Virus record (IMG/VR): IMGVR_UViG_3300017824_001452
From: a virus
Reading direction: 5' to 3' (one strand)
Length of the DNA: 64,000 nt
In this document: piece by piece, positions 19,163 through 44,500 of the stretch
How the letters are laid out: each line of letters opens with the position of its first letter
Numbering within the stretch: position 1 is the first letter of the stretch
Translations under genes and position numbers: made by a program
The notes under the pieces: model-generated
The model's input: only the letters and a program-made list of their open reading frames with translations
Told to the model about the DNA's origin: nothing
Databases searched by the model: none

Positions 19163-19594
19163 TTATTCTACATCATTCAAAGGATTTTCTAAGATCGTTT
19201 GAATTCTTTCTTCTAAGTCTTTCCTCATCTCACGCATTTCTTTGTCTTGCTCTTTGAAACGTTCTTGCATCTCACGTTCCATCTCATAGACATCATCACG
19301 TACTTCACGTTGAGTTTTGGCAGTTTCACTTTCAACTCTACGTGCTAAACGAGCGGCTTCTGTGATTTCTCCTTGCAGATTATCTTTGATAACTTCTGTA
19401 AGTTCAGTCAATCTAATAATTTCTTGTTCGATTGTTTCTGGTTGTAATGCTTCTAGTTTTTCTTCTGCTTCAAGTAGTCTATTGTAGAGTTCAAAGCCTC
19501 CCCATAAACCACCAATTAATGTACCTAATAAGGGTAAAATGAATAGCAGTTTGCTACCACTCATCTTTATGCCTTCATACTCTACACTTGCCAT
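19163..19594 (-). CDS. Single-TM protein with C-terminal coiled coil
   Basis: LLFILPLLGTLIGGLWGGFELY hydrophobic helix followed by an E/R/K-rich heptad region; RBS aggag. Confidence 0.8.
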   Translation of the reverse strand: MASVEYEGIKMSGSKLLFILPLLGTLIGGLWGGFELYNRLLEAEEKLEALQPETIEQEIIRLTELTEVIKDNLQGEITEAARLARRVESETAKTQREVRDDVYEMEREMQERFKEQDKEMREMRKDLEERIQTILENPLNDVE

Positions 19595-19603
19595 ATTATA
19601 CTC

Positions 19604-20011
19604 CTATTGTTTACTGCTAAATGCTTTTCCTGCTTCAGCAATACCAAATGATCCTAATGTGACAACAACAAAAGACGTATAGATAAAGTCTGATATAACT
19701 AAATCAGTGCCGTCTAATCCTGTCACTAAGTCTACGATACCAAACGCAACCATCATAAAGAACGATGCAAATCCAATGATTGATTTCTCATTGATTTTGT
19801 TGTCGTCCATAAATAGATGACTAAATTTGAATTTTTCTTTTGGTTTCACTTCATGGGAAACTTTTCTTAAGTCCTGAGTTAATGCTTCCATCTCTCTGAT
19901 TTTGTCATTAGCCTCGTCTAGTTTTAGAAGTAGATCAGTATATTTGTCTAAATCTAAATTTTGAACGACTCCGTCGCCGCCCTCGATTTCGATGTTTTCT
20001 TTGTCACTCAT
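19604..20011 (-). CDS. Coiled-coil + two-TM membrane protein
   Basis: N-terminal coiled coil; 'INEKSIIGFASF..' and 'FVVVTLGSFGI' helices. Confidence 0.8.
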   Translation of the reverse strand: MSDKENIEIEGGDGVVQNLDLDKYTDLLLKLDEANDKIREMEALTQDLRKVSHEVKPKEKFKFSHLFMDDNKINEKSIIGFASFFMMVAFGIVDLVTGLDGTDLVISDFIYTSFVVVTLGSFGIAEAGKAFSSKQ

Positions 20012-22833
20012 TATTTTTCTCCTGTGTCTTCATCTGGGTTTATTCCATATTGCATAAGAACCATCTTATACAACTTGTCTTGTGTTTGCCCGGCCATACG
20101 ATAGAATCCCATCTTGTTATCATCTATCTTACCGTCAGGCATTTGTTTGCTGTCGTACCATTGATTTTCATTATTAGCATAAACTTGTACACCTGTATAT
20201 GCACTAAAGCCTGCTGTATAACCTATATAAGCAACAGCAACAGTTTGGTCTGCGTATCCGCCATCTTCAGTTGGTCCGCCTTCCTGAATACTTTGTAATT
20301 GCTCTTGTAAGTTTTGTGCGGCAACTTGCGAACCTACTTTGTCTGCTAGACTTTCAACTGCTTGGGTAGTACGTTGTTCTTGGACAGAATTCTGTACTTC
20401 AAACCGTTGAAAGTTTGGTGTTTGTTGACTTAAAAACTCAGTCAATCCTGTACCCGTTGATAATGCTTCAGTTAAATTGTCTCCAAAATCAGCATCGGCT
20501 TGAGTAACACCACTACCGTCGTCAAATGAGTCTATAAATAATGGTTCTTCTTGTAATTGTTCTTGTTGCTGTTCAGCAACTTGGAACGCAGAAGTTTGTA
20601 CGACATCTACAGATGTATTAGCCGCATCGATTGATGTATCAACTTGACCAGTAATCTGTTCAAATTGTTGTTGGCTAGAATCATCTGCAACACCGGTTGA
20701 CTCACTACCTGAGGAACCAGTGCTGTTAAAACTACCATCGTTTTGTTGCATTGCAATACTTTGTGATCCTGAATCAACTTGAACTGATTCAGCACTACCA
20801 TCAGATATTACATTTTCAATAACGTTAGCAGTTTGGGTATCATCAGAAACCTCAGTAAGAACCTGTGCAATAGCAACAGATTGAGATGCTGGTTTCTTAG
20901 ATGATGTTGAAGAACTGCTTTTAGCCTGTGAGGCTTCTTTTTCAACTTTAGCAATTTCTTCTTTAATTTCTTCTTTAATTTCTTCTTGTTCTTCAGCAAC
21001 GATGACTTCTTCGGCTTCTTCTATTACTTCAGTAAGTTCTTCAATAGAGTCTTCTGCTACTAATTCTTCTAATACGTCTTCACTGATTAATTCTGCTAAT
21101 GCCTCGTCTTCTTCTGCTAAAACGTTAAACACTTCTTCCGACTCTACAAATATAGGTTCTTCAGAAACTTCTTCACTTGCTACCCAAACTTCTTCTTCGG
21201 GTGCACCTGCTACATAAAGTTCATAATCAACTGTATTTTCTTCTTGTTGGTATACTGTTGTTTCAACTTCATATGTTTCAACTTCATATGTTTCTATTAA
21301 TGCGATTTCTTGTTCTGTTTGTTGCTGTTGAAATTCTTCAACAGGCATGTTCATTTCTACAATTGGATCAACATTAGAGACAGAGTTTATTACATCTATA
21401 TTAGTATTATCAACCTGAAATATTTCAACTCCTGAATCTATTAACGACTCTTCTCCTGATACTGCAATTGATTCAACCCCTGTTGTTGTAAACATGTTTT
21501 CTGTCATATCTTGTTCAGTATATGAGCCATCATCGGCACCACTGAAATCAGATTCAAAAGTTTCGTTACCGGTCATTGCTCCGTCGTCTGATCCGTCATT
21601 ACTTACAAAACCCAGGTCAGAGCCGTCATCACTATATCCAGTAGATCCATCATTAGTAAATTCACTATATTCGTCATCGTACCCGGTAGATCCATTTGAT
21701 GAAAAACTTCCTGTCGAAGAATCATACTCTGAACCAGATGATTCTGCTAATGCAGTTTGATAGTTAGGACATGAAGGATCACTTAAAGGATTAATATCAC
21801 ATTGATCTACTTCCGGCTCAGGCTCTATGTATCCAGGACATTGAGAATCATATTGAGCATCTAAATTACATTGTTGATCTAAGTATGCTTGTTCATAGCC
21901 AGAACACTCAGTACTGGATAATGGATCATTTGTACAAGGGTCAAGTAAAGATTGTCCATTATTGCCTTCATGGTAATATATGGCTCCGCCGCCCTCTAAG
22001 TATCCGCCGTCAAACTCGTCCCAGGTTGCATTCCCATTTGTCTCGTCATCATAAAATACATATTGAGTATAATTTGAATTATCTTTTTTCTCTCCAATTA
22101 AAACATCATGTTGTACAATATCTAATTCACCATAAGCAAATGTATAATTGTCAGGCATATTAACTTCTGCTCTTTCAGCATCAGTACAACGGTCTTCTCC
22201 GCATTTTGCTAAAGAGTCATTATAATCGTATATGTAAACTTCAAAACTATTATTAGAAGCCCTGTTATATTCCATTAAATTGTACCATCCTAATATAACG
22301 TAGTCATCAAATGTTTTGTATAATAATGCACTATCATTATTCATACCGATCATGTCAGTATAGAAAGGAAAAAGAACATCGTACCATCCCCATTGTCCTC
22401 CAGAAGTTGTGTTTAATTGATCTGGTGTCCAGTCTGAACAATATCTAGGCCCTTCATCTGCTTTAGTTAACATAAAACAACCATTAGTACTCATGTAACC
22501 ACCAGTAAATGAGTCGTTGTGCCACTCCCATGAAAAACCAAATTCTACTTTGGCAGGACATCCACCGTCATCCTGAAAATATCCACTGCTGTTGATATTA
22601 TTGAAATTCCAACAACCCTTAATACCTGTTTCTCCTGCGGCTTGTCTGTCATAAAGATTGTATAAATCTCCAAACGTATTACTAATTTCGTAAACCGTAT
22701 CGGTACCATCGGCATTCGTTTCTAGGGAGTATTGGTATTGGCCTGTCCCTGTTGTCCATGCAGTGCCGTTACCGGCTACTGCAAAGTTAGGTAATGTTAA
22801 TAGTAATAATATTAAGAGTTTAATTCGAACCAT
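20011..22833 (-). CDS. Secreted protein: signal peptide, NIDO-like domain, Cys repeats, acidic stalk
   Basis: MVRIKLLILLLLTLPNFAVA signal; 'FGFSWEWHNDSFTGGYMSTNG' NIDO-like; three C-x6-8-C-x2-Y repeats; long E/D/S/Q-rich region. Confidence 0.75.
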   Translation of the reverse strand: MVRIKLLILLLLTLPNFAVAGNGTAWTTGTGQYQYSLETNADGTDTVYEISNTFGDLYNLYDRQAAGETGIKGCWNFNNINSSGYFQDDGGCPAKVEFGFSWEWHNDSFTGGYMSTNGCFMLTKADEGPRYCSDWTPDQLNTTSGGQWGWYDVLFPFYTDMIGMNNDSALLYKTFDDYVILGWYNLMEYNRASNNSFEVYIYDYNDSLAKCGEDRCTDAERAEVNMPDNYTFAYGELDIVQHDVLIGEKKDNSNYTQYVFYDDETNGNATWDEFDGGYLEGGGAIYYHEGNNGQSLLDPCTNDPLSSTECSGYEQAYLDQQCNLDAQYDSQCPGYIEPEPEVDQCDINPLSDPSCPNYQTALAESSGSEYDSSTGSFSSNGSTGYDDEYSEFTNDGSTGYSDDGSDLGFVSNDGSDDGAMTGNETFESDFSGADDGSYTEQDMTENMFTTTGVESIAVSGEESLIDSGVEIFQVDNTNIDVINSVSNVDPIVEMNMPVEEFQQQQTEQEIALIETYEVETYEVETTVYQQEENTVDYELYVAGAPEEEVWVASEEVSEEPIFVESEEVFNVLAEEDEALAELISEDVLEELVAEDSIEELTEVIEEAEEVIVAEEQEEIKEEIKEEIAKVEKEASQAKSSSSTSSKKPASQSVAIAQVLTEVSDDTQTANVIENVISDGSAESVQVDSGSQSIAMQQNDGSFNSTGSSGSESTGVADDSSQQQFEQITGQVDTSIDAANTSVDVVQTSAFQVAEQQQEQLQEEPLFIDSFDDGSGVTQADADFGDNLTEALSTGTGLTEFLSQQTPNFQRFEVQNSVQEQRTTQAVESLADKVGSQVAAQNLQEQLQSIQEGGPTEDGGYADQTVAVAYIGYTAGFSAYTGVQVYANNENQWYDSKQMPDGKIDDNKMGFYRMAGQTQDKLYKMVLMQYGINPDEDTGEK

Positions 22834-24137
22834 TCTCTCTCACAAGTCCTACTAGATTTACGTCTTCCTTTAAAGTCAGGTCTAGTACATTTTTCGATGA
22901 AAGCGGCTTGATCAGCAGTCACATTAGAAATATTATCTTCTTCTATTTCATCATTGTTCGTAAATAAACCTAAAAACTTGTCTTTAGTAGTTGCACTTGA
23001 GTCAGGTCTTCTTCCTTCATTTTCTTCCCACTGCTCAGAAGCGGCTGGACCAATAGCACCCATATATGGACAAGGTGTACCTGCCATCTCCATTGCTCTA
23101 AACACTCTAGGATCCTGACACATTAATGATACTGCGGCTACTTTCATACCCATATCATATATTGTTTTAGATAGTTTGATCCTTTCACAGTTCATATCTC
23201 TAACAGACTTACCACCTGATATACCAAATACTTGCCCCTGAAACGCACCAGACACACCAGTTGTACATAAATCTTGTGAATAACTTGACCCTATGCTTGG
23301 TGCAATTGCACTAGCAGGTGGCGCCTTTGTAGTGATCTCTTGTTTGATAGTCTGATCAGTTTTGTTTATGTTGGTGTTATTGTTCGTGTTGGTGTTATTG
23401 TTTTCAGACTTGTTGTTAGTCGTAACATTGGACTCACTTGTACTAGTCGAAGTGTTGTTATTGTTATTGGTATTAGTATTATTTGAGGTCGTATTATTAT
23501 TGTTATTATTCGTATTGGTTGACGTAGAATTGCTGTTGCTATTTACGTTCTGGTTAATGTTAGAATTGTTATTGTTAGTATTCGTATTATTGGAAGTACT
23601 ATTCACCGTTGTATTATTGGTGTTGTTATTGGTATTAGTATTGGTATTGTTACTTGTAGTATTATTAGTATTGGTGTTTACATTCGTATTGGTATTGGTG
23701 TTGTTACTTGTGGTATTGTTGGTATTAGTATTGTTATTGGTGTTGGTATTGTTACTAGTACTGGTTGAAGTATTAGTATTCGTATTAGTATTCGTATTAT
23801 TATTGGTATTGTTATTGGTATTTGTTGATGTACTGGTTGAAGTATTAGTATTGGTATTGTTATTAGTGTTATTATTGGTGTTAGTATTGGTATTGGTGTT
23901 GGTATTAGTGTTGGTATTAGTGTTGGTGTTGGTGTTGGTATTGTTACTAGTACTGGTTGAAGTATTAGTATTCGTATTAGTGTTTGTATTGGTATTGGTT
24001 GATGTACTGGTTGTAGTTGATGCCGTACAATTCTCAGTACCGGCTGTACAAGTTCCAGTAGCCTGTGCAAAAATATTTGGGCTGGCAACCCCGACACTAA
24101 ATAAAATTAGTGCGATTTTCAATTGTCTCATATGCAT
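22812..24137 (-). CDS. Secreted Thr/Asn-repeat protein with Cys-rich C-terminal domain
   Basis: Likely start ATG 24137 or 24131 (RBS aaggga); signal peptide ..PNIFA; about 220-aa TN repeat; C-terminal 'APPASAIAPS..DLC..GVSG..NCERIKL..GMKVAAVSLMCQD..AGTPCP'. Confidence 0.8.
   Translation of the reverse strand: MHMRQLKIALILFSVGVASPNIFAQATGTCTAGTENCTASTTTSTSTNTNTNTNTNTNTSTSTSNNTNTNTNTNTNTNTNTNTNTNTNNNTNNNTNTNTSTSTSTNTNNNTNNNTNTNTNTNTSTSTSNNTNTNNNTNTNNTTSNNTNTNTNVNTNTNNTTSNNTNTNTNNNTNNTTVNSTSNNTNTNNNNSNINQNVNSNSNSTSTNTNNNNNNTTSNNTNTNNNNNTSTSTSESNVTTNNKSENNNTNTNNNTNINKTDQTIKQEITTKAPPASAIAPSIGSSYSQDLCTTGVSGAFQGQVFGISGGKSVRDMNCERIKLSKTIYDMGMKVAAVSLMCQDPRVFRAMEMAGTPCPYMGAIGPAASEQWEENEGRRPDSSATTKDKFLGLFTNNDEIEEDNISNVTADQAAFIEKCTRPDFKGRRKSSRTCEREWFELNS
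23362..24020. repeat. Low-complexity coding repeat (Thr-Asn)n with internal block duplications
   Basis: Imperfect hexamer array (gtattg/gtgttg/gtatta); block ttactagtactggttgaagtattagtattcgtattagt occurs near 23752 and 23944. Confidence 0.9.
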
Positions 24138-24176
24138 GGTATGTGATTCCCTTAATCGTAAGTTAGTTCGCACTAG

Positions 24177-28872: not shown

Positions 28873-29994
28873 ATGCAAAAGATTGAATTTACATCTAAAG
28901 AACAAGTGATCTACTTTATGTTGACCACTTCCATTAGTTTGTCTCACTATGATCACAAATTCATATCCAACATGCAATCATTGACCCAAGACAAAAAGCA
29001 GATTACATCTGGTCAAGCAGAGTTGTTTGATAAACTTTTGCACAAGTACAGAAAGCAATTTGCTACTAACGGATATACAGTCGATGAGTTAGAAACCTTA
29101 ACATGGAAGTGTGTAGTTGTACCAAGTCTTCCTAAGTATACAAATGCAAATGTTGATTGGGACGATAGTGTGAATAAAATGGTTATCAGAGTTCCATTCA
29201 AAAAAGAATTTATATCTAACTTCAGAAAGGAAATGACAACCTTTTTTCCTATTGATGATTATGGTCCAATAGATAACTCACAACCTTGGGTATGGAATAG
29301 TGAACGCAAAAGATATGAAGCAGATCCAAGCACATCATCTTTGAAACTAGCATACAATATTTTACCTCAATACTTTACAACAGTGTATCACAATGAAGTA
29401 AAAGACGTAATTGATACATTAGAACAAACCAAAGTAGAATACAAAGATCCAACGTTGGTCTTAACTAATGGACAATATACTGTTGTCAAATCTAATTCAG
29501 TATTAGATGAGTTACTTGCAGGCGTAACTTTAGACAACAGTGCAAAATGTTTATACCGAATGTCACAACTTGGTATAAAAGTAGACAAGGCAATCATCAA
29601 TGATGATCCTAAACTGGAGTTTGCCGCAAACTACATTACAGAAATAGATGTAGATGCGATAAACGATTGTTGTGAATGGCTTGTCGAAATTGGTGTAAGT
29701 GATGTCGTACTAGGGAGGGGAACTCCAGAGTGGAGATCACATGCGTCTAAAGATGAGGCTACTAGAATTGGAGTCTTTAAAGAATGCCGGGAAGCAATTT
29801 CTGAACATTCGTTAAACATGCATAAGAGCGGGGATTTGTTTGATCAACCTGATGATTATACAGAAACAACTGTAAAAAGTTTACCTGTTTTAATGCAATT
29901 TAATTCAATTGTAGAACCCGAACAATGTCATGGAGATAATCAAAATGGCAAAATTATAATTATAACAAATGGGAGACCCATAAATATAAAATGA
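28873..29994 (+). CDS. Hypothetical phage protein
   Basis: Long ORF (track start 28846); likely start ATG 28873, 6 nt after TATAAT. Confidence 0.7.
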   Translation: MQKIEFTSKEQVIYFMLTTSISLSHYDHKFISNMQSLTQDKKQITSGQAELFDKLLHKYRKQFATNGYTVDELETLTWKCVVVPSLPKYTNANVDWDDSVNKMVIRVPFKKEFISNFRKEMTTFFPIDDYGPIDNSQPWVWNSERKRYEADPSTSSLKLAYNILPQYFTTVYHNEVKDVIDTLEQTKVEYKDPTLVLTNGQYTVVKSNSVLDELLAGVTLDNSAKCLYRMSQLGIKVDKAIINDDPKLEFAANYITEIDVDAINDCCEWLVEIGVSDVVLGRGTPEWRSHASKDEATRIGVFKECREAISEHSLNMHKSGDLFDQPDDYTETTVKSLPVLMQFNSIVEPEQCHGDNQNGKIIIITNGRPINIK

Positions 29995-31583
29995 AAGAAG
30001 AAAACAAAAACTTCCACATCAACTTTGCTCCACTTTATGCAGTGGTAGTATTTATGTTACTAATGATAGTAGCAAATGAAGTACAAGCACAGGAGATCGA
30101 AGAAGTAGTAGTCACAGGCGCAACCATATATGAAACAGAATCAGATCCTTCGACTGATGTTAACGTATTAGAATCAATTATACCCGAAGCAACAACTTCA
30201 GGTGGTTATGGTTCTTTTTTAGGTTATACAGAAAGAGGAACACAAACGATTCACACGACTATTTTCAGAAACGGTGTACCTGCTAATGATGCAGGTAGCG
30301 GATGGTATGATTTTGGTCATGACTTTGCTACTGGAAACGAAAATGTAAAAATAGTCAATGGTCCAACTTCAGTCCTATATGGTTCTGGTAGTTTAGGTGG
30401 TGCTATTTTTATTACTGATGATCTTAAAGATGGATCTATTATCAGATATGGTAGTAATACATTTGTAAGTCACACAGGTAGTGGTTTTAATCTAAGTTAC
30501 TTTGATGCAAAGAATGATAGTGTTAGAACAGACAACGATGAAAAGGATAGTTATAACAATTTAACGGTCAAAGGACAGAAAGAATTCGGTGACTGGAAAG
30601 TAAATCTATCAGGTACATCATACGAGTATGACTATGATAACTGCTATACTGCAAGTTTCTCACAGTCAAATGATTGCGTACAATCAGGAGATAAAGGTTC
30701 CTTATCAATAAGGAATGATAACTACACATTCGGTTACTCATTTAACAATGCTAACTATAAAACAGAAAGTGTAGAAACATATAAGAGTGATGCGGAAAGA
30801 TTTTATGCAGATACTAGACATCAAGTTGGAAACACATTACTGGGTGCAACTGCTGAAAATGAAAAGTATGAAGACTTTAGCCAAACTCAATTATCAGTTT
30901 ACTCTTTAACATCATTCGATCTGTTTGATCTAGGTTTTAGATTAAGTGAAGATGCATTTGTATATCGTATAGGTGCAGAATCTAATAATTGGTTTGGTAG
31001 TTTCGGTACATCATATCGTAACCCAACTCTTTATGAACTGAACGGTGATGCTTGGACTTTACCTAATAAAAGTTTAGACCCTGAAGAAGCAGTAGGTGGA
31101 GAGATTGGATACAAGAACTTTACAGTATTCAAATACAAATTTAGTGAAGGTATTGATTATAGTTTTGCAGACTCACAGTTTGTTAACACTGGATCATACG
31201 ACACTGAAGGTGTTAGATATGTAAACAGTTTTGTTGTTGAAAGACTTAATACTACTCTAGTAGGTATTGAGTTAGGATACACAAACTCTGATCAACCACG
31301 TATTCCCGAATACAAAGCAATCATATCATCTACAACTTACTTAGGTGGTTATGATATTTCATTTAGATATACTGGATTGTTTAACAGAACGCCTGGTCCA
31401 TACGATGGTACAGAAATGCTAGATGATGTAAGTTCAATTGACTACAAAATCGAAAGGCAAGTTATTCCTAAATACTTGCTATCATTTACTATAAGAGATA
31501 TACTAGATGATGAATTTGAATTAGTACCTAACTACAGAGCAGGTGGATTAGAATACTTCATAACACTACAATATAGGCCTTAA
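29991..31583 (+). CDS. TonB-dependent outer-membrane receptor (BtuB-like)
   Basis: Signal peptide ending EVQA, TonB box 'EEVVVTG', plug motif 'NGPTSVLYGSGSLGGAI', 'YRNPTLYEL', 'LDPEE', C-terminal amphipathic strand. Confidence 0.85.
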   Translation: MKEENKNFHINFAPLYAVVVFMLLMIVANEVQAQEIEEVVVTGATIYETESDPSTDVNVLESIIPEATTSGGYGSFLGYTERGTQTIHTTIFRNGVPANDAGSGWYDFGHDFATGNENVKIVNGPTSVLYGSGSLGGAIFITDDLKDGSIIRYGSNTFVSHTGSGFNLSYFDAKNDSVRTDNDEKDSYNNLTVKGQKEFGDWKVNLSGTSYEYDYDNCYTASFSQSNDCVQSGDKGSLSIRNDNYTFGYSFNNANYKTESVETYKSDAERFYADTRHQVGNTLLGATAENEKYEDFSQTQLSVYSLTSFDLFDLGFRLSEDAFVYRIGAESNNWFGSFGTSYRNPTLYELNGDAWTLPNKSLDPEEAVGGEIGYKNFTVFKYKFSEGIDYSFADSQFVNTGSYDTEGVRYVNSFVVERLNTTLVGIELGYTNSDQPRIPEYKAIISSTTYLGGYDISFRYTGLFNRTPGPYDGTEMLDDVSSIDYKIERQVIPKYLLSFTIRDILDDEFELVPNYRAGGLEYFITLQYRP

Positions 31584-33096: not shown

Positions 33097-33597
33097 ATGA
33101 GAATACTAACATTAGAAGACCAATACTATAATTTAGAAACGTTACCAGAAGAAATCGATGACCTTCGATTTGCAATTTTAGATAATTCTAATCCTACATT
33201 CGTGGATTACTATTACATTCCACTTATCTTTTTAGAGTCATTCAATGCTCCAGCAGTTGTATTGCAAGTTGGTGACAAGCAGATTAAGATGCCAGTTGAT
33301 TGGCAAGTGTTGATCGGTGATGAAGAAGGTGGAGACTTAGAAACACTTCCCCTCTCATCTTTGAATGACAGAGGCTTTTCAGTCTTTTCATTTAATCCGT
33401 TATCGTCATTCTCTCCAGGCTTTCTCCCAATAGAGATTGTAGACATTTATTCAGATGTAACATGGTACGCACCAAGACTACGTAACGGTCAGTTCTTATG
33501 TGTGCCTTTAGATGATGGTCCCAAGCCAAGATGTATCTACTTTGTTAAAGAAATTAGTAGAAATTGTGAAGTTGTAGATTATGCTCAAGTCTTTTGA
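33097..33597 (+). CDS. Conserved phage protein, possible catalytically dead Hint-fold
   Basis: All-beta pattern; 'IEIVDIYSDVTWYAPRLRNGQFLCV' recalls Hint block F; ORF itself is solid. Confidence 0.5.
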   Translation: MRILTLEDQYYNLETLPEEIDDLRFAILDNSNPTFVDYYYIPLIFLESFNAPAVVLQVGDKQIKMPVDWQVLIGDEEGGDLETLPLSSLNDRGFSVFSFNPLSSFSPGFLPIEIVDIYSDVTWYAPRLRNGQFLCVPLDDGPKPRCIYFVKEISRNCEVVDYAQVF

Positions 33598-33736: not shown

Positions 33737-34316
33737 AGCAAAAACTCCAACAGATGAAAAGTTTGAAAAACAAGACTTCAACTTGTTTGAAGCAATAGCG
33801 GCAATCGATAAAAAAGATTATGATTATTACGATAGACTAACTCCTGAACAACAAAAGAAGTTTGTTCCGTTTATGATGCTACATTGGATTAGTGTAGTAA
33901 AAGGTAAACGTGAGTTGTCGCAATACTATTTACAGAGTGTTGACTATCATGCCAACACACATTTGTTTAATGAAAACGTAATGCATCATCCTAAATTACA
34001 ATGGTTGATGTTATGTGCGGCGAGTCCAGGCATTGGTAAACAATTTCATCAATGGATCCCTCACATTAAAGCAGGCGTAAGCAAGTTAAAAGATACTGCA
34101 AAGCCTAAAGATATAAAAGATTACTATAAAAAAGTATATCCTAAACTAACAGCAGGAGAACTCACTGAGATAGCAAAATTGTTTTGTGAACAACACAAAC
34201 GCAAAATGTATCTAGCAGAAAAGTTTCCAGAATTAAAATTTGATGAGGTAGAATTACTTAGTGAACTCGTTACAGATAATGAAATCGAAGAATACGAAAA
34301 AGAACTCGGCAACTAA
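33729..34316 (+). CDS. Possible clamp-loader small subunit (gp62-like)
   Basis: 'YDYY...KFVPFMM..W.S...AN...HPKLQWLML...HQW'; likely TTG start at 33729 after gagg. Confidence 0.45.
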   Translation: MARAKTPTDEKFEKQDFNLFEAIAAIDKKDYDYYDRLTPEQQKKFVPFMMLHWISVVKGKRELSQYYLQSVDYHANTHLFNENVMHHPKLQWLMLCAASPGIGKQFHQWIPHIKAGVSKLKDTAKPKDIKDYYKKVYPKLTAGELTEIAKLFCEQHKRKMYLAEKFPELKFDEVELLSELVTDNEIEEYEKELGN

Positions 34317-34989
34317 AAAGTTTGGTTGCGATTTTTGCGGAAGAAGTTTTGCAAAAGAAAGTACTATTGAAAAACATCTTTGTGAACAGAAACGCAGATA
34401 TGGTGATAGGAACCTTAAAGGTAATCGTATAGGTTTTAATGCATGGTTAAACTTCTATGCACAAAACACTTCTAGCAAAAAACAAAAAACTTATGTGGAC
34501 TTTACTAAAAGTTCTTATTATCTAGCCTTTGTTAAGTTCGGTCATTATTGTGTTAACACAAGATGTATCAATGTGAATCGTTATGCTGATTGGTTGCTTA
34601 GAAATCAAATTAGAATTGACAGTTGGACTAGTGATAAAAACTACACTAAGTTTATTGTTGAATATCTTAGACAAGAAGATCCATTAGATGCAATTGCTCG
34701 TAGCATGGAGACTCTTATCGAAATTTGTAAAGATGATCAGATAGAAAGTAAAGATGCATTTAGATATGGTGCTCCAAATAGAATCTGTTATGAAGTCACA
34801 ACAGGAAGAGTATCGCCTTGGTCGTTGTATCAGAGTGAGTCTGGTGCAGAGTTTCTAAGTAAGTTAGATGAAGTACAACAAAAAATGGTATTAGAATATA
34901 TTGACCCTGAGAAGTGGGCGATTAAATTTAACCGTGATGCAGAAGTTGTAGTTGAAGTAAAAGAGTTATTGAGGCAAGCAGGGTATTGA
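34261..34989 (+). CDS. Conserved phage protein with N-terminal Zn finger
   Basis: CDFC-x12-H-x-C motif. Confidence 0.7.
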   Translation: MNSLQIMKSKNTKKNSATKKFGCDFCGRSFAKESTIEKHLCEQKRRYGDRNLKGNRIGFNAWLNFYAQNTSSKKQKTYVDFTKSSYYLAFVKFGHYCVNTRCINVNRYADWLLRNQIRIDSWTSDKNYTKFIVEYLRQEDPLDAIARSMETLIEICKDDQIESKDAFRYGAPNRICYEVTTGRVSPWSLYQSESGAEFLSKLDEVQQKMVLEYIDPEKWAIKFNRDAEVVVEVKELLRQAGY

Positions 34990-35378
34990 ATACAGTAGAA
35001 GTACATTTACAATTTTATGAACTAGATGGTCGATGGAAAGGACATGACATATTCAAGTGGTGTTGTGTCACTAAAACTCCTCCCAGATATGAACGTTTTC
35101 ATCCTAGACCTTTAGCACATACTGATTTGTCTTCTATTATAAATTTTAATAAAGTACGAGATTGGTGTTGGGATACATGGGGACCTAGTTGTGATATGAA
35201 AGATTACGACAGAGTACATGAATTATCAAACTTTATGAGCCTAGCACAATACAACGACAGTACATACGATACACTAAATGAAAACTGGTGTTGGTCTAAT
35301 GAAGAAGATCATAAGCAACGTAGAATATATCTAGCAGGTGACGAAGAACGTGTGTGGCTAGAAACGAGGTGGCAATGA
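34986..35378 (+). CDS. Hypothetical phage protein
   Basis: 130 aa; 'VRDWCWDTWGP' and C-terminal 'DEE..W...RW'. Confidence 0.7.
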   Translation: MNTVEVHLQFYELDGRWKGHDIFKWCCVTKTPPRYERFHPRPLAHTDLSSIINFNKVRDWCWDTWGPSCDMKDYDRVHELSNFMSLAQYNDSTYDTLNENWCWSNEEDHKQRRIYLAGDEERVWLETRWQ

Positions 35379-36181
35379 GTCAGTGGCACGGCGGAAAAGG
35401 ATCCGCACCTAGAAAGGGTGAAAATCAAAAAGCCTATGCCGCTAACTATGATCGTATCTTCGGTAAAAAAGATATCATTAATGATCAATTATCACATGAA
35501 GGCAGGGGTTTTGATATCATAAATGATATCGTATCAGACGACCTTATTCAACGTATAAACGACAGAAAGGACGAACTCTACCCTGTACGTGCATCCACAC
35601 ATAAGAAGCAGTATGCAGAAGCAGAGGCATGTAAGAAACTATTTGGCATTGCTGTATGGTGGAGTCAACTCACGGATGATTGGGACGAAGTACAAGAGAT
35701 ACATGAACTCATCTATCCTGAAATCAAAAAGCATTTAACTGATGCAACATTTTATGCAAGTGATATCGTAACAATCAATGGTCCAAGCAGATGGGTAGGA
35801 CCTCATATTGATACACCGCACAGATTTAAAAAATATAATAAAAGAGAAAACAATGATGTCTGTGGTATACAAGTTATTATTCCACTTGATGACTTAGACA
35901 AAGACACAGGAGCAACTGGACTTATTCCTTATAGTCATCAACAAGATTGGGATATACAAGATTGCTATGAAGGCGTGCATGATGAATACTTTTTAGAGAA
36001 TGCAGAACAATATGATATGCCAAAAGGTAGTATCTTGTTTTACAATACTCGTTTAATGCATTCTACTATGCCATTACATTTACCCAAAAAACGTTCCATT
36101 TTGTTGATTAATTACCTCAGAAATGATATAATAAAAGAAATAAAAGACGAAGATAACGTATGGAGTTCTAATGGCAAATGA
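35375..36181 (+). CDS. PhyH-like 2OG-Fe(II) dioxygenase with N-terminal GKGS peptide
   Basis: HID...H facial triad, 'IPLDD....GATG.IP.SH', 'KGS.LFY..R..H', distal Arg; likely start ATG 35375. Confidence 0.85.
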   Translation: MSQWHGGKGSAPRKGENQKAYAANYDRIFGKKDIINDQLSHEGRGFDIINDIVSDDLIQRINDRKDELYPVRASTHKKQYAEAEACKKLFGIAVWWSQLTDDWDEVQEIHELIYPEIKKHLTDATFYASDIVTINGPSRWVGPHIDTPHRFKKYNKRENNDVCGIQVIIPLDDLDKDTGATGLIPYSHQQDWDIQDCYEGVHDEYFLENAEQYDMPKGSILFYNTRLMHSTMPLHLPKKRSILLINYLRNDIIKEIKDEDNVWSSNGK

Positions 36182-36713
36182 CGTAATGATAGATATGGAA
36201 ACTCTAAGTACAGATCCTGATTGTGTTATTTTAACAATCGGTGCTGTTCGTTTTGATCCTATGGGTACTGGAGTCGTAGAAAAACTAGAACTACGTCCTG
36301 AGATAGATTCGCAAACAGAAGAATTAAATAGACATATAAACCCTGATACATTAAGGTGGTGGGGAGAACAAAGTGAGGATGCAATTGATGAAGCAATGGG
36401 TGACAGAGATAGGATTCCGTTTAAAGATGCAATGGATCAGTTATACAAGTTCTGCTGGAATCGCAGAGCAGTTTGGTCTAATGGCGCTGGTTTTGATATT
36501 GTTGTTGCAGAGAATGCCTTTAGGCAATTAGAAATGCCGATACCCTGGCCTTTCTACACTATTAGAGACACAAGAACAATATATGATCTTTGCAACGTAT
36601 CTCTTAAAGATGGTCAAGCAGTAACGTCTCACAAGGCTGTAGAAGACGCAGAACACCAAGCAATCGTTGTGCAACGTGCATATCAGAAACTTAAACAAGC
36701 AGGACTTAAATGA
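36171..36713 (+). CDS. DEDDh 3'-5' exonuclease (Rv2179c-like)
   Basis: ExoI DMET, ExoII 'WSNGAGFD', 'RDTRT', ExoIII 'HKAVEDA'. Confidence 0.88.
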   Translation: MANDVMIDMETLSTDPDCVILTIGAVRFDPMGTGVVEKLELRPEIDSQTEELNRHINPDTLRWWGEQSEDAIDEAMGDRDRIPFKDAMDQLYKFCWNRRAVWSNGAGFDIVVAENAFRQLEMPIPWPFYTIRDTRTIYDLCNVSLKDGQAVTSHKAVEDAEHQAIVVQRAYQKLKQAGLK

Positions 36714-37291
36714 GTATACAGTCAGATATTGATATTGACTTTGGAGATAGAGAAAAACTACTCAAGTTGATTAAACATGTACCTGCGGCAATGCGTGATG
36801 TAGAGCCAATAAAGAAACATCCTACTGGTGTATACATAACAGATGTACCCTATGACCCTGTAAATGATATGTGTTCTTTAGATTATAAAGAAGCAGATCA
36901 AAGAGGATACTTTAAGTTAGACCTGTTAAATGTTAACATCTATAAAGCAGTAAAAGATGAATTACATTTAATTAGTCTTATGACTGAGCCTAATTGGGAA
37001 CGATTAAAAGAAAGAAATTTTGTATCTGTGTTGTTGCATCTAAACAAACAATATGATGTTATGCAACAAATGCCAGAGCCTATTAATAGTATTCCAAGAT
37101 TAGCAATGTTCTTGGCTATTATTCGTCCAGCAAAAAGAAATCTTATTGGGAAGACATGGAAAGAGATAAGTAAAACTGTGTGGATTGACAACAATACAGG
37201 ATACACGTTTAAAAAGTCACATGCAGTGGCATATGCACAATTAGTTGTAGTGCATATGAATTTATTAGAGGAGCAAGATGAGTCAATATGA
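36710..37291 (+). CDS. Minimal DNA polymerase III alpha (DnaE)-like nucleotidyltransferase core
   Basis: SDIDIDF, KHPTGV, KLDLL, IIRP and GYTFKKSHAVAY in the same order as DnaE PDFDVDF, HAGGV, KFDFL, RPG and GYGFNKSHSAAY. Confidence 0.8.
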   Translation: MSIQSDIDIDFGDREKLLKLIKHVPAAMRDVEPIKKHPTGVYITDVPYDPVNDMCSLDYKEADQRGYFKLDLLNVNIYKAVKDELHLISLMTEPNWERLKERNFVSVLLHLNKQYDVMQQMPEPINSIPRLAMFLAIIRPAKRNLIGKTWKEISKTVWIDNNTGYTFKKSHAVAYAQLVVVHMNLLEEQDESI

Positions 37292-37550
37292 CGATAGAGT
37301 AGAAAGACAGAGACAAATGTTAGCGGCCGAAGAGTGGTCAAGAGGCGTAAAAGCAATACATGCACATTCATTTACTACTATGCATTACGAAACAAACCCA
37401 GATAGAACAGGTGATGATTTACGTGTATTAGATATAGAATATAATGACGGCACAGTAGAAAGAGAATACATAGTATCAGGTCGAAAAGAAATAATAGGAA
37501 CAAAACTTAAAGGTGAAATGTTATTGTTTGAGTATCAGAGGCACATCTAA
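37278..37550 (+). CDS. Hypothetical phage protein
   Basis: 90-aa ORF, RBS gaggag. Confidence 0.7.
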   Translation: MSQYDDRVERQRQMLAAEEWSRGVKAIHAHSFTTMHYETNPDRTGDDLRVLDIEYNDGTVEREYIVSGRKEIIGTKLKGEMLLFEYQRHI

Positions 37551-38104
37551 TGGAAGAATTGACACTAAACTTAATACCAGAAAACGATCCTAAATTAAAG
37601 GAACCTTGTGAGCCTTGGGACTTTAAACTCGACGGTGATCCAACTGAACTAATTAAAGCAATGACTAAAGTGATGTTTAATCCTAATCATCCTGGCATTG
37701 GTTTAGCCGCACCACAATGTGGCGTAATGAAAAATATATTAATCATGGGCACAGATGAAAAGTTAATGGCTTTTATTAATCCTCAAGTAGATGAACTTAG
37801 AGGAGAAAAAGAATTATTTTTAGAAGGGTGCTTAAGTTATCCTGATCTATGGTTGCATGTTCCAAGACAACCTGAATGCGTAGTCACCTATCAACAAATC
37901 GATGGTGAAGTCGTTAAAGAAAAACATCTTACTGGTATTCAAGCACGTGTATTTTTACATGAATATGATCACCTATTAGGTATCACGTTTGAAGAACGTG
38001 TACAAAGTAAACTTAGTTTAGAATTGGCTAGAAAACGCAGAGCAAAAAAGAAACGCCAAAGTGCTAAACTGGCTAGAAGACTTAAATTCCCTTCTGTTTC
38101 TTAG
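37550..38104 (+). CDS. def: Peptide deformylase
   Basis: All three PDF motifs: GIGLAAPQ, EGCLS, HEYDHL. Confidence 0.95.
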   Translation: MEELTLNLIPENDPKLKEPCEPWDFKLDGDPTELIKAMTKVMFNPNHPGIGLAAPQCGVMKNILIMGTDEKLMAFINPQVDELRGEKELFLEGCLSYPDLWLHVPRQPECVVTYQQIDGEVVKEKHLTGIQARVFLHEYDHLLGITFEERVQSKLSLELARKRRAKKKRQSAKLARRLKFPSVS

Positions 38105-38493
38105 TAAGGTCGTTTTACTAAAGTAATCGATTTTCTTTTAACTCTTTTCTTTTGGAAGTCAGTCATTGACACAATCGGTCCATGCAACAATGTTAATGAC
38201 TTATTATTGAATGTTCTTAAGAAAGGTTTAAACATTGCCCACTCTTGCTTAAGAAATAAATGAATTGGTATTTGACGATTTGATTCCCACCACCAAACAT
38301 CTCCTAATTCTAAAAACTTTAGTCTTTTTTCAGGATCAACTATTGCACCATAGTCATAGATAGTTGTAACAAGATCATCACGGTTTTGAACAATGCCCAC
38401 AAAGTCTTGTCCGGCATATTGTAACACCGAAATAAACGGGTGAGTCTCTGTCAATTTGACAAAAAAGTCGATGGGTTTCTTTGAATCTGTCAT
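38101..38493 (-). CDS. Conserved hypothetical phage protein
   Basis: 130 aa, 'WWWESNRQIPI'; minus-strand ACTAAATA at 38504-38511. Confidence 0.75.
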   Translation of the reverse strand: MTDSKKPIDFFVKLTETHPFISVLQYAGQDFVGIVQNRDDLVTTIYDYGAIVDPEKRLKFLELGDVWWWESNRQIPIHLFLKQEWAMFKPFLRTFNNKSLTLLHGPIVSMTDFQKKRVKRKSITLVKRPY

Positions 38494-39436: not shown

Positions 39437-40411
39437 ATGTTTGATATACTTACGATTGTCCCAGGCAAAAAGAAGCAGACGCAGAGTGGATGGACTTCAT
39501 TCAATGCGCCTTGTTGCCATCACAATGGACATAACCCTGACAAAAGAATGCGAGGGGGAATTAAAGCAGACGGTGATGATTGGAACTATCATTGTTTTAA
39601 TTGTGGCTTTAAGTGCGGTTTCAAACTAGGCAGAGCAATTAGTAAACGCACACGTAACTTTTTATCATGGTGTAATATGCCAGACCAAGATATTAATAAA
39701 TGGTCGTTGCATTCTATTCAACACAAAGATTTGATAGATTCTATCCTACACAAAAAGAAACAACAGAAGTTACCTACGTTTAAAGAAAAGCCAATGCCAG
39801 AAGGTGAGTTGATTTATACTGCTAATAAAGATCATCAAGTGTACATTGACTACTTGAACAAAAGAGGATTACAACACAACGACTATCCTTTTATGGTTAA
39901 TCCCAATGCAGAGGGAAGACAATCGCAGGGTATAATTATCCCTTACACATATGAAAACAAAGTTGTAGGTAGTACAATAAGATTTATGGACGATAGAAAT
40001 CCTAAGTTCATAAATGATCAACAACAAGGATATGTATTTGGTACTGATTTACAAAAAGATAGTTGGGAAGTCGTATTAGTTTTTGAAGGTATTTTTGATG
40101 CTATCTCAATGAACGGTTTAGCACTGACACATGACACAATTAATGACAATCAAGTTGCTGTCATTAACAAATTGGGTAAACGTGTTATTGTTGTTCCTGA
40201 TCAGGATAAAACAGGTTTAAGTATATGTGAAAGAGCATTAGAACTAGGTTTTGATGTGTCTTTACCTAACTGGTCAGAAGATATTAAAGATGCAAATGAT
40301 GCTGTAATTAAATATGGTCGTCTGAATACTCTACTAAGTATATTAGACTCCGCAACAAACAGCAAAATTAAAGTAGAAGTTATGAGGAATAAAATTGCTA
40401 AAAGAATTTAA
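39437..40411 (+). CDS. DNA primase (gp61-like)
   Basis: Zn ribbon 'PCC..CFNC', 'YL..RG', TOPRIM 'EGIFDA', 'PDQDKTG', 'KDAND'. Confidence 0.88.
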   Translation: MFDILTIVPGKKKQTQSGWTSFNAPCCHHNGHNPDKRMRGGIKADGDDWNYHCFNCGFKCGFKLGRAISKRTRNFLSWCNMPDQDINKWSLHSIQHKDLIDSILHKKKQQKLPTFKEKPMPEGELIYTANKDHQVYIDYLNKRGLQHNDYPFMVNPNAEGRQSQGIIIPYTYENKVVGSTIRFMDDRNPKFINDQQQGYVFGTDLQKDSWEVVLVFEGIFDAISMNGLALTHDTINDNQVAVINKLGKRVIVVPDQDKTGLSICERALELGFDVSLPNWSEDIKDANDAVIKYGRLNTLLSILDSATNSKIKVEVMRNKIAKRI

Positions 40412-41810
40412 CGTAGAAGTACAAGAATTATTCTTGCGAATGATGATAACAAATGCAGAGTTGTTTGTTAGGGTCAATAATATCTTTAACGCAGAAAACT
40501 TTGATAGAAGATTAAGACCTGTCGCAGAGTTTATGAGAGAACATTCAGAGCAATATAAGGTATTGCCTGACTCTACGCAAATCAAAGCAACAACAGGAGA
40601 AACAATCGACACAGTTGATGAATTAGACGATGGTCATTACGAATGGTTTATGACTGAGTTTGAATCGTTTACTCGCAGACAAGAATTAGAAAGAGCAATC
40701 ATGTCATCAGCAGACTTGTTAGAGAAAGGTGATTATGATCCTGTTGAAAAGTTAATTAAAGATGCAGTACAAATATCATTACAAAGAGACTTAGGTATCG
40801 ATTACTTTGAAGATCCTAGGGCTCGTCTTATGCATCTTAAATCTAGCAACGGTCAAGTATCATGTGGTTGGCCCTGCTTAGATCAAAAACTCTATGGTGG
40901 TTTTAATAAAGGTGAACTGCAAATCTTTGCTGGGGGTTCGGGTTCAGGTAAATCATTGTTCATGCAAAATCTATCAGTCAATTGGGTAGAGCAAGGCTTA
41001 TCAGGCGTGTACATCACACTAGAATTGAGTGAAGAACTATCAGCAATGCGTATCGATTCTATGTTGACTGATACAAAGTCTAAGGAAGTATTTAAAGACT
41101 TAGACAATGTTGAAATGAAAGTTAAGATGAAACAAAAAGCCGCAGGTAACTTTAGAATTAAATATATGCCTGCTCAATCTACAGTAAATGATTTGAGAGC
41201 ATATGTCAAAGAATTACAAATACAAACAGGTATGAAACTAGACTTTATGTGCGTTGACTATTTGGATTTGTTAATGCCAGTAAGTGCTAAAGTAAGTCCT
41301 AGTGACTTGTTTGTTAAAGACAAATATGTATCAGAAGAATTACGTAACTTGGCGAAAGAGTTTGATTTAGTATTCGTAACTGCATCACAGTTAAACAGAA
41401 GTTCAGTTGATGAAATTGAATTTGATCACAGTCATATCTCAGGTGGTATATCAAAAATCAATACAGCAGACAATGTGTTTGGTATCTTTACATCACGTAG
41501 CATGAGAGAACGTGGTCAGTATCAAATTCAGTTAATGAAGACAAGATCAAGTTCAGGGGTAGGACAAAAAGTAGAATTAGCATTCGATATAGAAACATTG
41601 CGTATTACAGACCCAGGAACTAATGCACCAACGCATAACACATCACAACCATCTGCACAATCTATCATGGATAAGTTTAAAACAACATCACAAGTAGGGC
41701 AGACTAATGAAATAGTAGAAAATCAAGTAGAGCCCGAGCAAAAACGAGTAAATGGTGATGTACAAAGTACAAAATTAAAATCATTATTGAATACTTTGAA
41801 AGACAAATAA
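40395..41810 (+). CDS. Replicative DnaB-like helicase (gp41-like)
   Basis: GGSGSGKS, 'ITLEL', 'VDYLDL', 'TASQLNR', 'K.R'. Confidence 0.92.
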   Translation: MLKEFNVEVQELFLRMMITNAELFVRVNNIFNAENFDRRLRPVAEFMREHSEQYKVLPDSTQIKATTGETIDTVDELDDGHYEWFMTEFESFTRRQELERAIMSSADLLEKGDYDPVEKLIKDAVQISLQRDLGIDYFEDPRARLMHLKSSNGQVSCGWPCLDQKLYGGFNKGELQIFAGGSGSGKSLFMQNLSVNWVEQGLSGVYITLELSEELSAMRIDSMLTDTKSKEVFKDLDNVEMKVKMKQKAAGNFRIKYMPAQSTVNDLRAYVKELQIQTGMKLDFMCVDYLDLLMPVSAKVSPSDLFVKDKYVSEELRNLAKEFDLVFVTASQLNRSSVDEIEFDHSHISGGISKINTADNVFGIFTSRSMRERGQYQIQLMKTRSSSGVGQKVELAFDIETLRITDPGTNAPTHNTSQPSAQSIMDKFKTTSQVGQTNEIVENQVEPEQKRVNGDVQSTKLKSLLNTLKDK

Positions 41811-43351: not shown

Positions 43352-44500
43352 ATGAACCTCAGTGAATCATTATCTAATACTTTACGTACATTAGAAAAAA
43401 TCAACTTAGTCGAAGCAAAGGGACACTTAGATCACCCAGAAGATTTAGTGTTCTTAGGCGATGTTGAGGGTGCTAGACAAGCAATTAGTGCAATAGAACA
43501 AACAATCGCACAACCGGGTACAATCACAATTAAGTGGGACGGCTATCCCGCTCTTATCTTTGGACGTAATAAAGAAGGTAGATTCTCTATTATGGACAAA
43601 CATATGTTCAATAAGAAAGACGGTACAGGAAGACAAGTGTTTTCTCCCCAAGAGTTTAGACAGTATGATAAGAATAGAGGTGTTGATCGAGGAGACTTGT
43701 ATCAGTTGATTGATGATATATGGCCTGGATTAGAAAAAGCAGATAGAGGATCATTAGGTTATTATTGGGGAGACTTATTGTTTGCAAAACCATTAGAAGA
43801 CCAAGACGGATACTACTCATTTAAAATGAATCCAAATGGTATTGCATACAAAGTAAAAGCAGATAGTGAAGTTGGTCACATGCTAAAAGGAAAAACAGCA
43901 GGAGTAGGTGTGCATACATTTATTCCAGTTAACGCACAAACTACAGATGAGTCATCATCACTAGACGGTACGATAGGTAACTTACATAACAATAGTGATG
44001 TAGCAATTGTACCTAGCAAGATGCCCATTACACCAAAGATTAAAATGCCCACGAAATTGAAATCACAAGCAGAAGCAGAAATTGCTCAACACGGTGATGC
44101 TGTTCGTATCTTAATGAATTCAGCGCCACAGGCACGTACTGCATTTAATTCTTTGTTTACTGTATTCATTAATAAAAAGATTGTTGCCAAAGACCTGTCA
44201 AATTTGTATAATGATTTTATTCAGTTTGTTGAGCAACGTCCAATGACTGACTCAATGCGTACTAAAATTACTAATCACTTCAATGCTCACAAGGACGGTG
44301 TTATGGGTGCATTTAAGATTTGGATTGCATTGTATAATCTAAAACAGAACATCGTAGATCAATTAGACAAAGCCGCAGAGGCTAGTCCTGTTAAAGGATA
44401 CTTAGATGATGGCAGTGAAACACACGAAGGTTTCGTTGCTAATGGACTCAAGTTTGTCAATAGAATGGGCTTTTCTGCTCAAAATCTCGCCGCAAAGTAA
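43352..44500 (+). CDS. DUF6267-like protein with ligase-type KxDG motif
   Basis: 'HLDHPEDL', 'TIKWDGYPA..FG', C-terminal 'EGFV...K.V.R..FS..N'; N-terminal 'LVE' leader. Confidence 0.65.
   Translation: MNLSESLSNTLRTLEKINLVEAKGHLDHPEDLVFLGDVEGARQAISAIEQTIAQPGTITIKWDGYPALIFGRNKEGRFSIMDKHMFNKKDGTGRQVFSPQEFRQYDKNRGVDRGDLYQLIDDIWPGLEKADRGSLGYYWGDLLFAKPLEDQDGYYSFKMNPNGIAYKVKADSEVGHMLKGKTAGVGVHTFIPVNAQTTDESSSLDGTIGNLHNNSDVAIVPSKMPITPKIKMPTKLKSQAEAEIAQHGDAVRILMNSAPQARTAFNSLFTVFINKKIVAKDLSNLYNDFIQFVEQRPMTDSMRTKITNHFNAHKDGVMGAFKIWIALYNLKQNIVDQLDKAAEASPVKGYLDDGSETHEGFVANGLKFVNRMGFSAQNLAAK

Follow-up and report, generated by a model that had tools for sequence, protein, structure and literature searches.

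The 193-residue protein encoded at positions 36710..37291 is identified, from its sequence and predicted fold, as the C-terminal subunit of a two-gene minimal DNA polymerase III (Pol III) alpha of the kind found in group 2.2 jumbo phages, its N-terminal partner being encoded by a distant gene. We propose, with a probability of about 0.72, that the heterodimer would act as a template-directed, dNTP-selective and distributive short-patch polymerase serving a family B polymerase (PolB). The window, i.e. the whole stretch of 64,000 nucleotides analysed (IMG/VR record IMGVR_UViG_3300017824_001452), is part of an 89-kb contig that extends 25 kb past the window end. Proteins of the window are letter-for-letter identical on a 334,823-bp contig, a size above the 200 kb that marks a jumbo phage; the source is therefore an uncultured, aquatic jumbo phage of ~335 kb, of which the record holds about one quarter. 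The T4-like replication set of group 2.2 jumbo phages (DnaB, DnaG, SSB, UvsX/Y/W, RFC) is present as well. The main features are the following, in window positions except for the last.

34261..34989, plus strand: 242-aa C2H2 zinc-finger and helical protein (phrog_11058), an upstream neighbour kept in most isolates
35354-36181, plus strand: PhyH-type 2OG-Fe(II) oxygenase, a clade-restricted insert on one flank of the exonuclease-polymerase pair
36171..36713, plus strand: DEDDh 3'-5' exonuclease of the Rv2179c/RNase AS-DexA family, 180 aa
36710..37291, plus strand: intact ORF of 193 aa, predicted to be the C-terminal (metal-/template-binding) subunit of a split minimal Pol III alpha
37550-38104, plus strand: peptide deformylase, a clade-restricted insert on the other flank of the pair
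38101..38493, minus strand: convergent 130-aa gene (phrog_11637), retained beside the C-subunit gene more widely than any other neighbour, fused lineage included
39437-40411, plus strand: DnaG-type primase
40395-41810, plus strand: DnaB helicase
G000:C1:5119-5625 (= L001:5122-5625 = P0001), minus strand in that numbering: N-terminal GS-motif subunit, 168 aa, with the motif WGVGRGSS

A 193-residue part of a family C polymerase core

The polymerase ORF begins within the ATGA at 36710-36713, which combines the TGA of the exonuclease ORF with its own ATG. The protein carries, in DnaE order, the motifs SDIDIDF (residues 5-11), KHPTG (36-40), KLDLL (69-73), IRPAK (138-142) and GYTFKKSHAVAY (164-175). 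A pattern of motif order and spacing picked out this ORF and no other on the 89-kb contig, and had no match in 200,000 shuffles; this is a weak test, as the pattern was built from the ORF itself. The intact ORF, the ordered DnaE motifs and the ATGA overlap with a DEDDh exonuclease had been reported in a preliminary description made from the sequence, and all are confirmed. That description also spoke of all five DnaE landmark motifs; the five are indeed present, but the GS motif was left off its list and sits on the second gene.

The 193-residue protein matches PHROG 11778 ('DNA polymerase') with an E-value of 6e-55, and a profile of 94 diverse homologues retrieved only DnaE chains from the PDB (best E 2e-5); Pfam and PDB searches with the sequence alone gave no match. 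The AlphaFold model (pLDDT 94), whose comparison with DnaE had been suggested earlier, aligns over 187-189 of the 193 residues with family C polymerases only (Z 6.2-9.6, the next unrelated match being at Z 3.6). The aligned span on E. coli DnaE is 398-781, and ~187 residues superimpose at 3.1-4.0 Å on the DnaE/PolC structures 2HPI, 5M1S and 3F2B. With Foldseek all E-values were above 0.001, and the top 12 matches were all Pol III/PolC. Its length lies within the ~190-200 residues of C subunits homologous to the DnaE catalytic and template-binding core. The thumb, long fingers, clamp-binding region, PHP and OB domains are absent, so that the make-up of a replicative DnaE holoenzyme (PHP, thumb, clamp-binding fingers, OB) is not found here. 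The dNTP-binding GS motif of DnaE (GRGS, R362-S364) is likewise absent from the ORF, which starts at the DxD strand.

The median dN/dS of the gene against its relatives is 0.084, which points to purifying selection, and the three catalytic Asp residues noted as intact at the outset (D6, D8 and D71) are invariant in 94 of 94 diverse sequences, as the suggested check among homologues had called for. A pseudogene or a sequencing artefact was considered for this ORF and rejected, as were an intein-split gene, the extra terminal segments being missing, and an ordinary DnaE in pieces, no PHP gene having been found in our partial contig or in five relatives, nor a separate fingers gene in these five.

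The partner gene and the shared active site

The N-subunit gene is found past the window end, ~46.5 kb downstream of the 193-aa gene, with which it shares contig and strand. Its 168-residue product matches PHROG 11127 (E 2e-40) and corresponds to residues 319-393 of E. coli DnaE (profile, E 4e-11), its end falling a few residues short of where the 193-aa protein starts. A separate and distant N-subunit gene of this kind is part of the split minimal Pol III alpha of group 2.2 jumbo phages, which Iyer et al. 2021 (PMC7824862) described from sequence; its pattern is one of two distant genes, the core nucleotidyltransferase alone and PolB alongside. A literature search for experimental work on this split enzyme found none. 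Among isolate phage records 96 contain the C subunit, with a coverage of at least 80% in all of them, and 89 contain the N subunit, the counts per genus agreeing between the two; both were present in the three isolates checked singly. Clustered at 90% identity, the family comprises at least 7,984 clusters, and the C subunits of Atu_ph07, PA5oct/Paride, PBECO4 and XacN1 are 36-48% identical to the 193-aa protein. Within the group 2.2 family, the present clade is set apart as uncultured and aquatic, with a DexA-like exonuclease gene overlapping the polymerase start. Slickus01 (W01) keeps both mini Pol III genes in a genome of only 141.6 kb. Directly upstream of the N-subunit gene stands a 189-aa gene without PHROG match (L001:5674-6240, minus strand), as also in a 332-kb relative.

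Since the GS loop sits on the partner gene, the stand-alone minimal nucleotidyltransferase first envisaged is not supported. The other early suggestion, one subunit of a split C-family replicase, holds for the split subunit but probably not for the replicase, PolB being present (see below).

N and C homologues also occur joined in frame, in DnaE order and through a 9-residue linker, as proteins of 375-376 aa that form three 90% clusters (P0257, P0350 and P0351/P0417/P0418, from assemblies in ENA and Logan), different clusters being 77-81% alike. Two loci are given as examples.

L193:1066-2193: fused form P0257
L253:10001-11131: fused form P0418

These natural fusions, which surfaced only through a word-free search, support the view that N and C act as one enzyme. 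In a quick, midpoint-drawn tree the fused forms are one group (support 100) nested among stand-alone C subunits (support 94), and tentatively the fused lineage is probably secondarily re-fused. No exonuclease of the DexA-like family stands beside the fused gene, which is followed by the convergent 130-aa homologue; a search for longer forms with a split subunit found none. The fusion is not mentioned in the consulted parts of Iyer et al. 2021 (PMC7824862). The present analysis adds the fused lineage, the conservation of template contacts and steric gate, and an invariant Glu at the position of R390, the latter two described below.

E. coli Pol III alpha has 1160 residues in one chain, whereas the mini polymerase has 361 in two. 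It shares with bacterial DnaE/PolC the Pol-beta-type palm, the catalytic triad, K553, the RP motif and the Y754/F756/H760 pocket, and lacks the PHP domain, thumb, most of the fingers, clamp motif, OB domain and tau-binding domain of DnaE. D6, D8 and D71 correspond to D401, D403 and D555 of E. coli, and these metal ligands are invariant also in 165-168 close homologues. K69 (K553) and R139-P140 (R639-P640) are conserved in 94 of the 94 diverse sequences, Y165 (Y754) in 74, F167 (F756) in 81 and H171 (H760) in 92. The GS motif is conserved in 26/26 N subunits, and the catalytic Asp residues and GS motif of a family C polymerase are thereby found across the two subunits jointly. Residues contacting dGTP or template have been mapped in the E. 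coli ternary complex (bioRxiv 10.64898/2026.06.29.735100), and H760 has been put forward as the steric gate against ribonucleotides (PMC8485763). From the conserved pocket residues we infer family C activity, that is template-directed dNTP incorporation.

The triphosphate site is remodelled, which is the main caveat on this predicted activity. The R390A substitution lowers the efficiency of the E. coli enzyme 27-fold (bioRxiv 10.64898/2026.06.29.735100), and the position of R390 is a Glu in 26/26 N subunits, three residues ahead of a Lys/Arg at or near the chain end. Moreover, the segment with R709, K714 and K715 of DnaE is deleted, and the thumb is also lost. As a conjecture, the chain-end Lys/Arg of the N subunit together with K142 may compensate for the lost triphosphate contacts.

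With this remodelled site, a Pol-beta-type palm without thumb and the loss of the DNA-gripping domains, the enzyme might be imagined as a template-independent nucleotidyltransferase for end tailing or the synthesis of oligonucleotides or signalling nucleotides, or as an RNA primase. We consider this improbable. The equivalents of the template-contacting R639-P640 and of the primer-contacting K553 are invariant and the steric-gate His is nearly so, and because these are kept, templated dNTP synthesis is favoured over the tailing or signal chemistry proposed in the preliminary description. Furthermore, a separate DnaG primase is encoded next door, and the gene is distributed as a core gene of the replication cluster, whereas counter-defence genes would be expected to be patchy.

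The upstream exonuclease and the gene neighbourhood

The 180-residue exonuclease scores 118.5 bits against PF16473 (cut-off 27), which places it in the DexA/RNase AS family; it matches phrog_255 with an E-value of 4e-44, and its best PDB match is T4 DexA (8KEL, E 0.003). Like T4 DexA and RNase AS (PF16473) it is a stand-alone DEDDh domain; T4 DexA is longer (227 aa), and the coupling to the mini polymerase is seen in this clade only. Residues D8, E10, D109, H154 and D159 are invariant, and dN/dS is 0.105. RNA-library contigs overlap parts of both genes, one of them spanning the exonuclease-polymerase junction, although such contigs cannot show transcription.

It could be asked whether this enzyme is an epsilon-like editor of the mini polymerase. 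Indeed, the active site of DexA matches that of epsilon, the DEDDh residues are intact, and among the 84 distinct C subunits of the clade (at least 64% identity) the exonuclease gene shows the direct stop/start overlap in 56 and lies 0.1-2.2 kb upstream in 18 more, being missing in 10, of which 8 by contig end. In more distant relatives, however, the adjacency was found in 0 of 13, three of these loci having just 1-1.5 kb of upstream sequence, and the family is absent from 6/8 complete isolates and otherwise located 39-113 kb away. It spans 794 phage records of unrelated types, its closest solved relative, T4 DexA, is a host-DNA-scavenging and homing nuclease, and short gene overlaps are common across the whole cluster. 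Moreover, the docking site of epsilon is the PHP domain, and editing depends on a wedge in the thumb, Y453-F455 (bioRxiv 10.64898/2026.06.29.735100), both deleted here; neither obligate co-occurrence nor a PHP/thumb docking site was found. When the exonuclease was included as a partner in a three-chain complex prediction, the score was 0.00 ('no answer'), and the result was counted neither way. The dedicated proofreading exonuclease of the preliminary description is thus not supported, and we regard such a pair as quite improbable. The exonuclease is a lineage-specific neighbour and no required part of the polymerase, and their coupling is old within the clade but does not define the polymerase family. 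A different lineage has an exonuclease of the DexA-like family, 33-36% identical, encoded downstream of its N-subunit gene at a distance of ~1.4 kb (L228:6630-7163, L233:11973-12509, L236:11948-12481).

The oxygenase and deformylase genes that flank the pair are both clade-restricted inserts, so the exonuclease-polymerase spot appears to take up genes. The C-subunit gene itself is grouped with primase, helicase, UvsW and clamp-loader genes; primase and helicase lie ~1.3-4.1 kb downstream of it in 6/8 isolates, and the helicase alone in a seventh. In nearly all relatives the 130-aa gene converges on the C-subunit gene; its dN/dS is 0.05, and its product has a WWWESNR motif, a basic C-terminal tail and, weakly (Z at most 5), the fold of a small Sm/Hfq/SH3-like barrel. 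The 242-aa upstream neighbour may resemble a gp59-type helicase loader.

Other genes of the window include a 166-aa core gene (phrog_11279; 33097-33597, plus strand) with a dN/dS of 0.04, Hint-domain-like by eye; a 530-aa TonB-dependent-receptor-like gene (29991-31583, plus strand) directly ahead of uvsW, with a weak Plug match in a 99% relative; a stand-alone 382-aa DUF6267 protein (43352-44500, plus strand); and a block on the opposite strand (19163-24173, minus) whose ORFs include one of 940 aa and one of 453 aa, the latter secreted-looking and bearing long TN repeats. The sole match in species genomes is L192 (CAYVBV010000107.1), a 6-kb contig in a Polynucleobacter MAG; it is probably a binned phage fragment and is no evidence of host.

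A proposed role beside the family B polymerase

PolB was found in 8/8 isolates tested, and in Slickus01 (W01), Paride (W03) and Atu_ph07 (W08) it is spread over two open frames. In records ~85% identical in DNA, PolB lies 38-40 kb downstream of the N gene, and in close relatives its exonuclease and polymerase motifs are intact where checked. In one 332-kb record the N gene is accompanied by a clamp loader of the same 90% cluster as that of our contig and, 36 kb further on, by a 904-aa PolB. PolB was not seen on our 89-kb contig (25% complete), and the position it takes in relatives (36-40 kb downstream of the N gene) falls beyond the contig end; ~17 kb walked beyond this end did not reach it. 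Nor was it seen in 15 IMG/VR fragments, which are uninformative as they are only 7-26% complete.

Because the close relatives and all 8 isolates carry PolB, the split enzyme is probably not the replicase. A main replicase, for example of the lagging strand, made processive by extra subunits such as the 242-aa and 130-aa neighbours, would fit the wide occurrence in the group, the strong selection, the presence of a clamp loader and the two conserved neighbours as candidate subunits. Against it, PolB is present in every complete genome tested and, in searches run, neither neighbour resembles a DnaE domain. Furthermore, no PHP domain was found in our partial contig or in five relatives, and no separate fingers gene in these five, finger-domain matches falling only within the C subunit itself. 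This option is therefore highly improbable. The remaining DnaE pieces that the preliminary description proposed to look for, and which could have rebuilt an ordinary polymerase, were not found, and neither of the results it named as refuting, loss of the Asp residues or missing domains encoded elsewhere, was obtained; the non-replicative or accessory role it put forward is plausible. It is scarcely credible that the protein is a remnant of DnaE that is decaying or has lost catalysis, or a module that binds DNA in a structural role: most of DnaE is gone and the arginine of catalytic efficiency is charge-reversed, but the metal ligands are invariant in close and diverse homologues alike, dN/dS is 0.08 and all 96 isolate records cover at least 80% of the subunit.

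As a short-patch polymerase, the 168-aa and 193-aa subunits would together rebuild a bare family C palm and nascent-base-pair pocket. The heterodimer would bind primer-template weakly, select dNTPs, add a few nucleotides and then release, synthesis being presumably distributive as there is no thumb, long fingers or clamp motif, and it would work beside the PolB replicase.

In Bacillus subtilis, DnaE elongates RNA primers and then yields to PolC. With this precedent and with primase and helicase adjoining, our first guess for the job, put forward tentatively and at rather less than even odds, is the DNA extension of the primase's RNA primers before hand-over to PolB. Gap filling or the extension of recombination ends comes second and is somewhat doubtful; gene order cannot separate primer extension from repair. 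A bolder and still more tentative version of the first guess is that the two-chain enzyme of 361 residues (376 when fused) is an active thumbless family C polymerase dedicated to RNA-primer-to-DNA hand-over, in which chain-terminal basic groups replace the triphosphate-binding arginines.

The fused protein of 375-376 aa could be assayed directly as a single chain and, should it prove active, would represent a very small working family C polymerase. The 193-aa gene itself is unexceptional within its published family, which, as a core gene, is very widespread among large phages. If the mini polymerase is a primer-extending helper of PolB, these phages would divide labour between two polymerases in parallel with Pol alpha/delta and with Bacillus DnaE/PolC; if the hand-over reading is true, the enzyme would serve a family B replicase as the counterpart, with a bacterial fold, of Pol alpha in eukaryotes.
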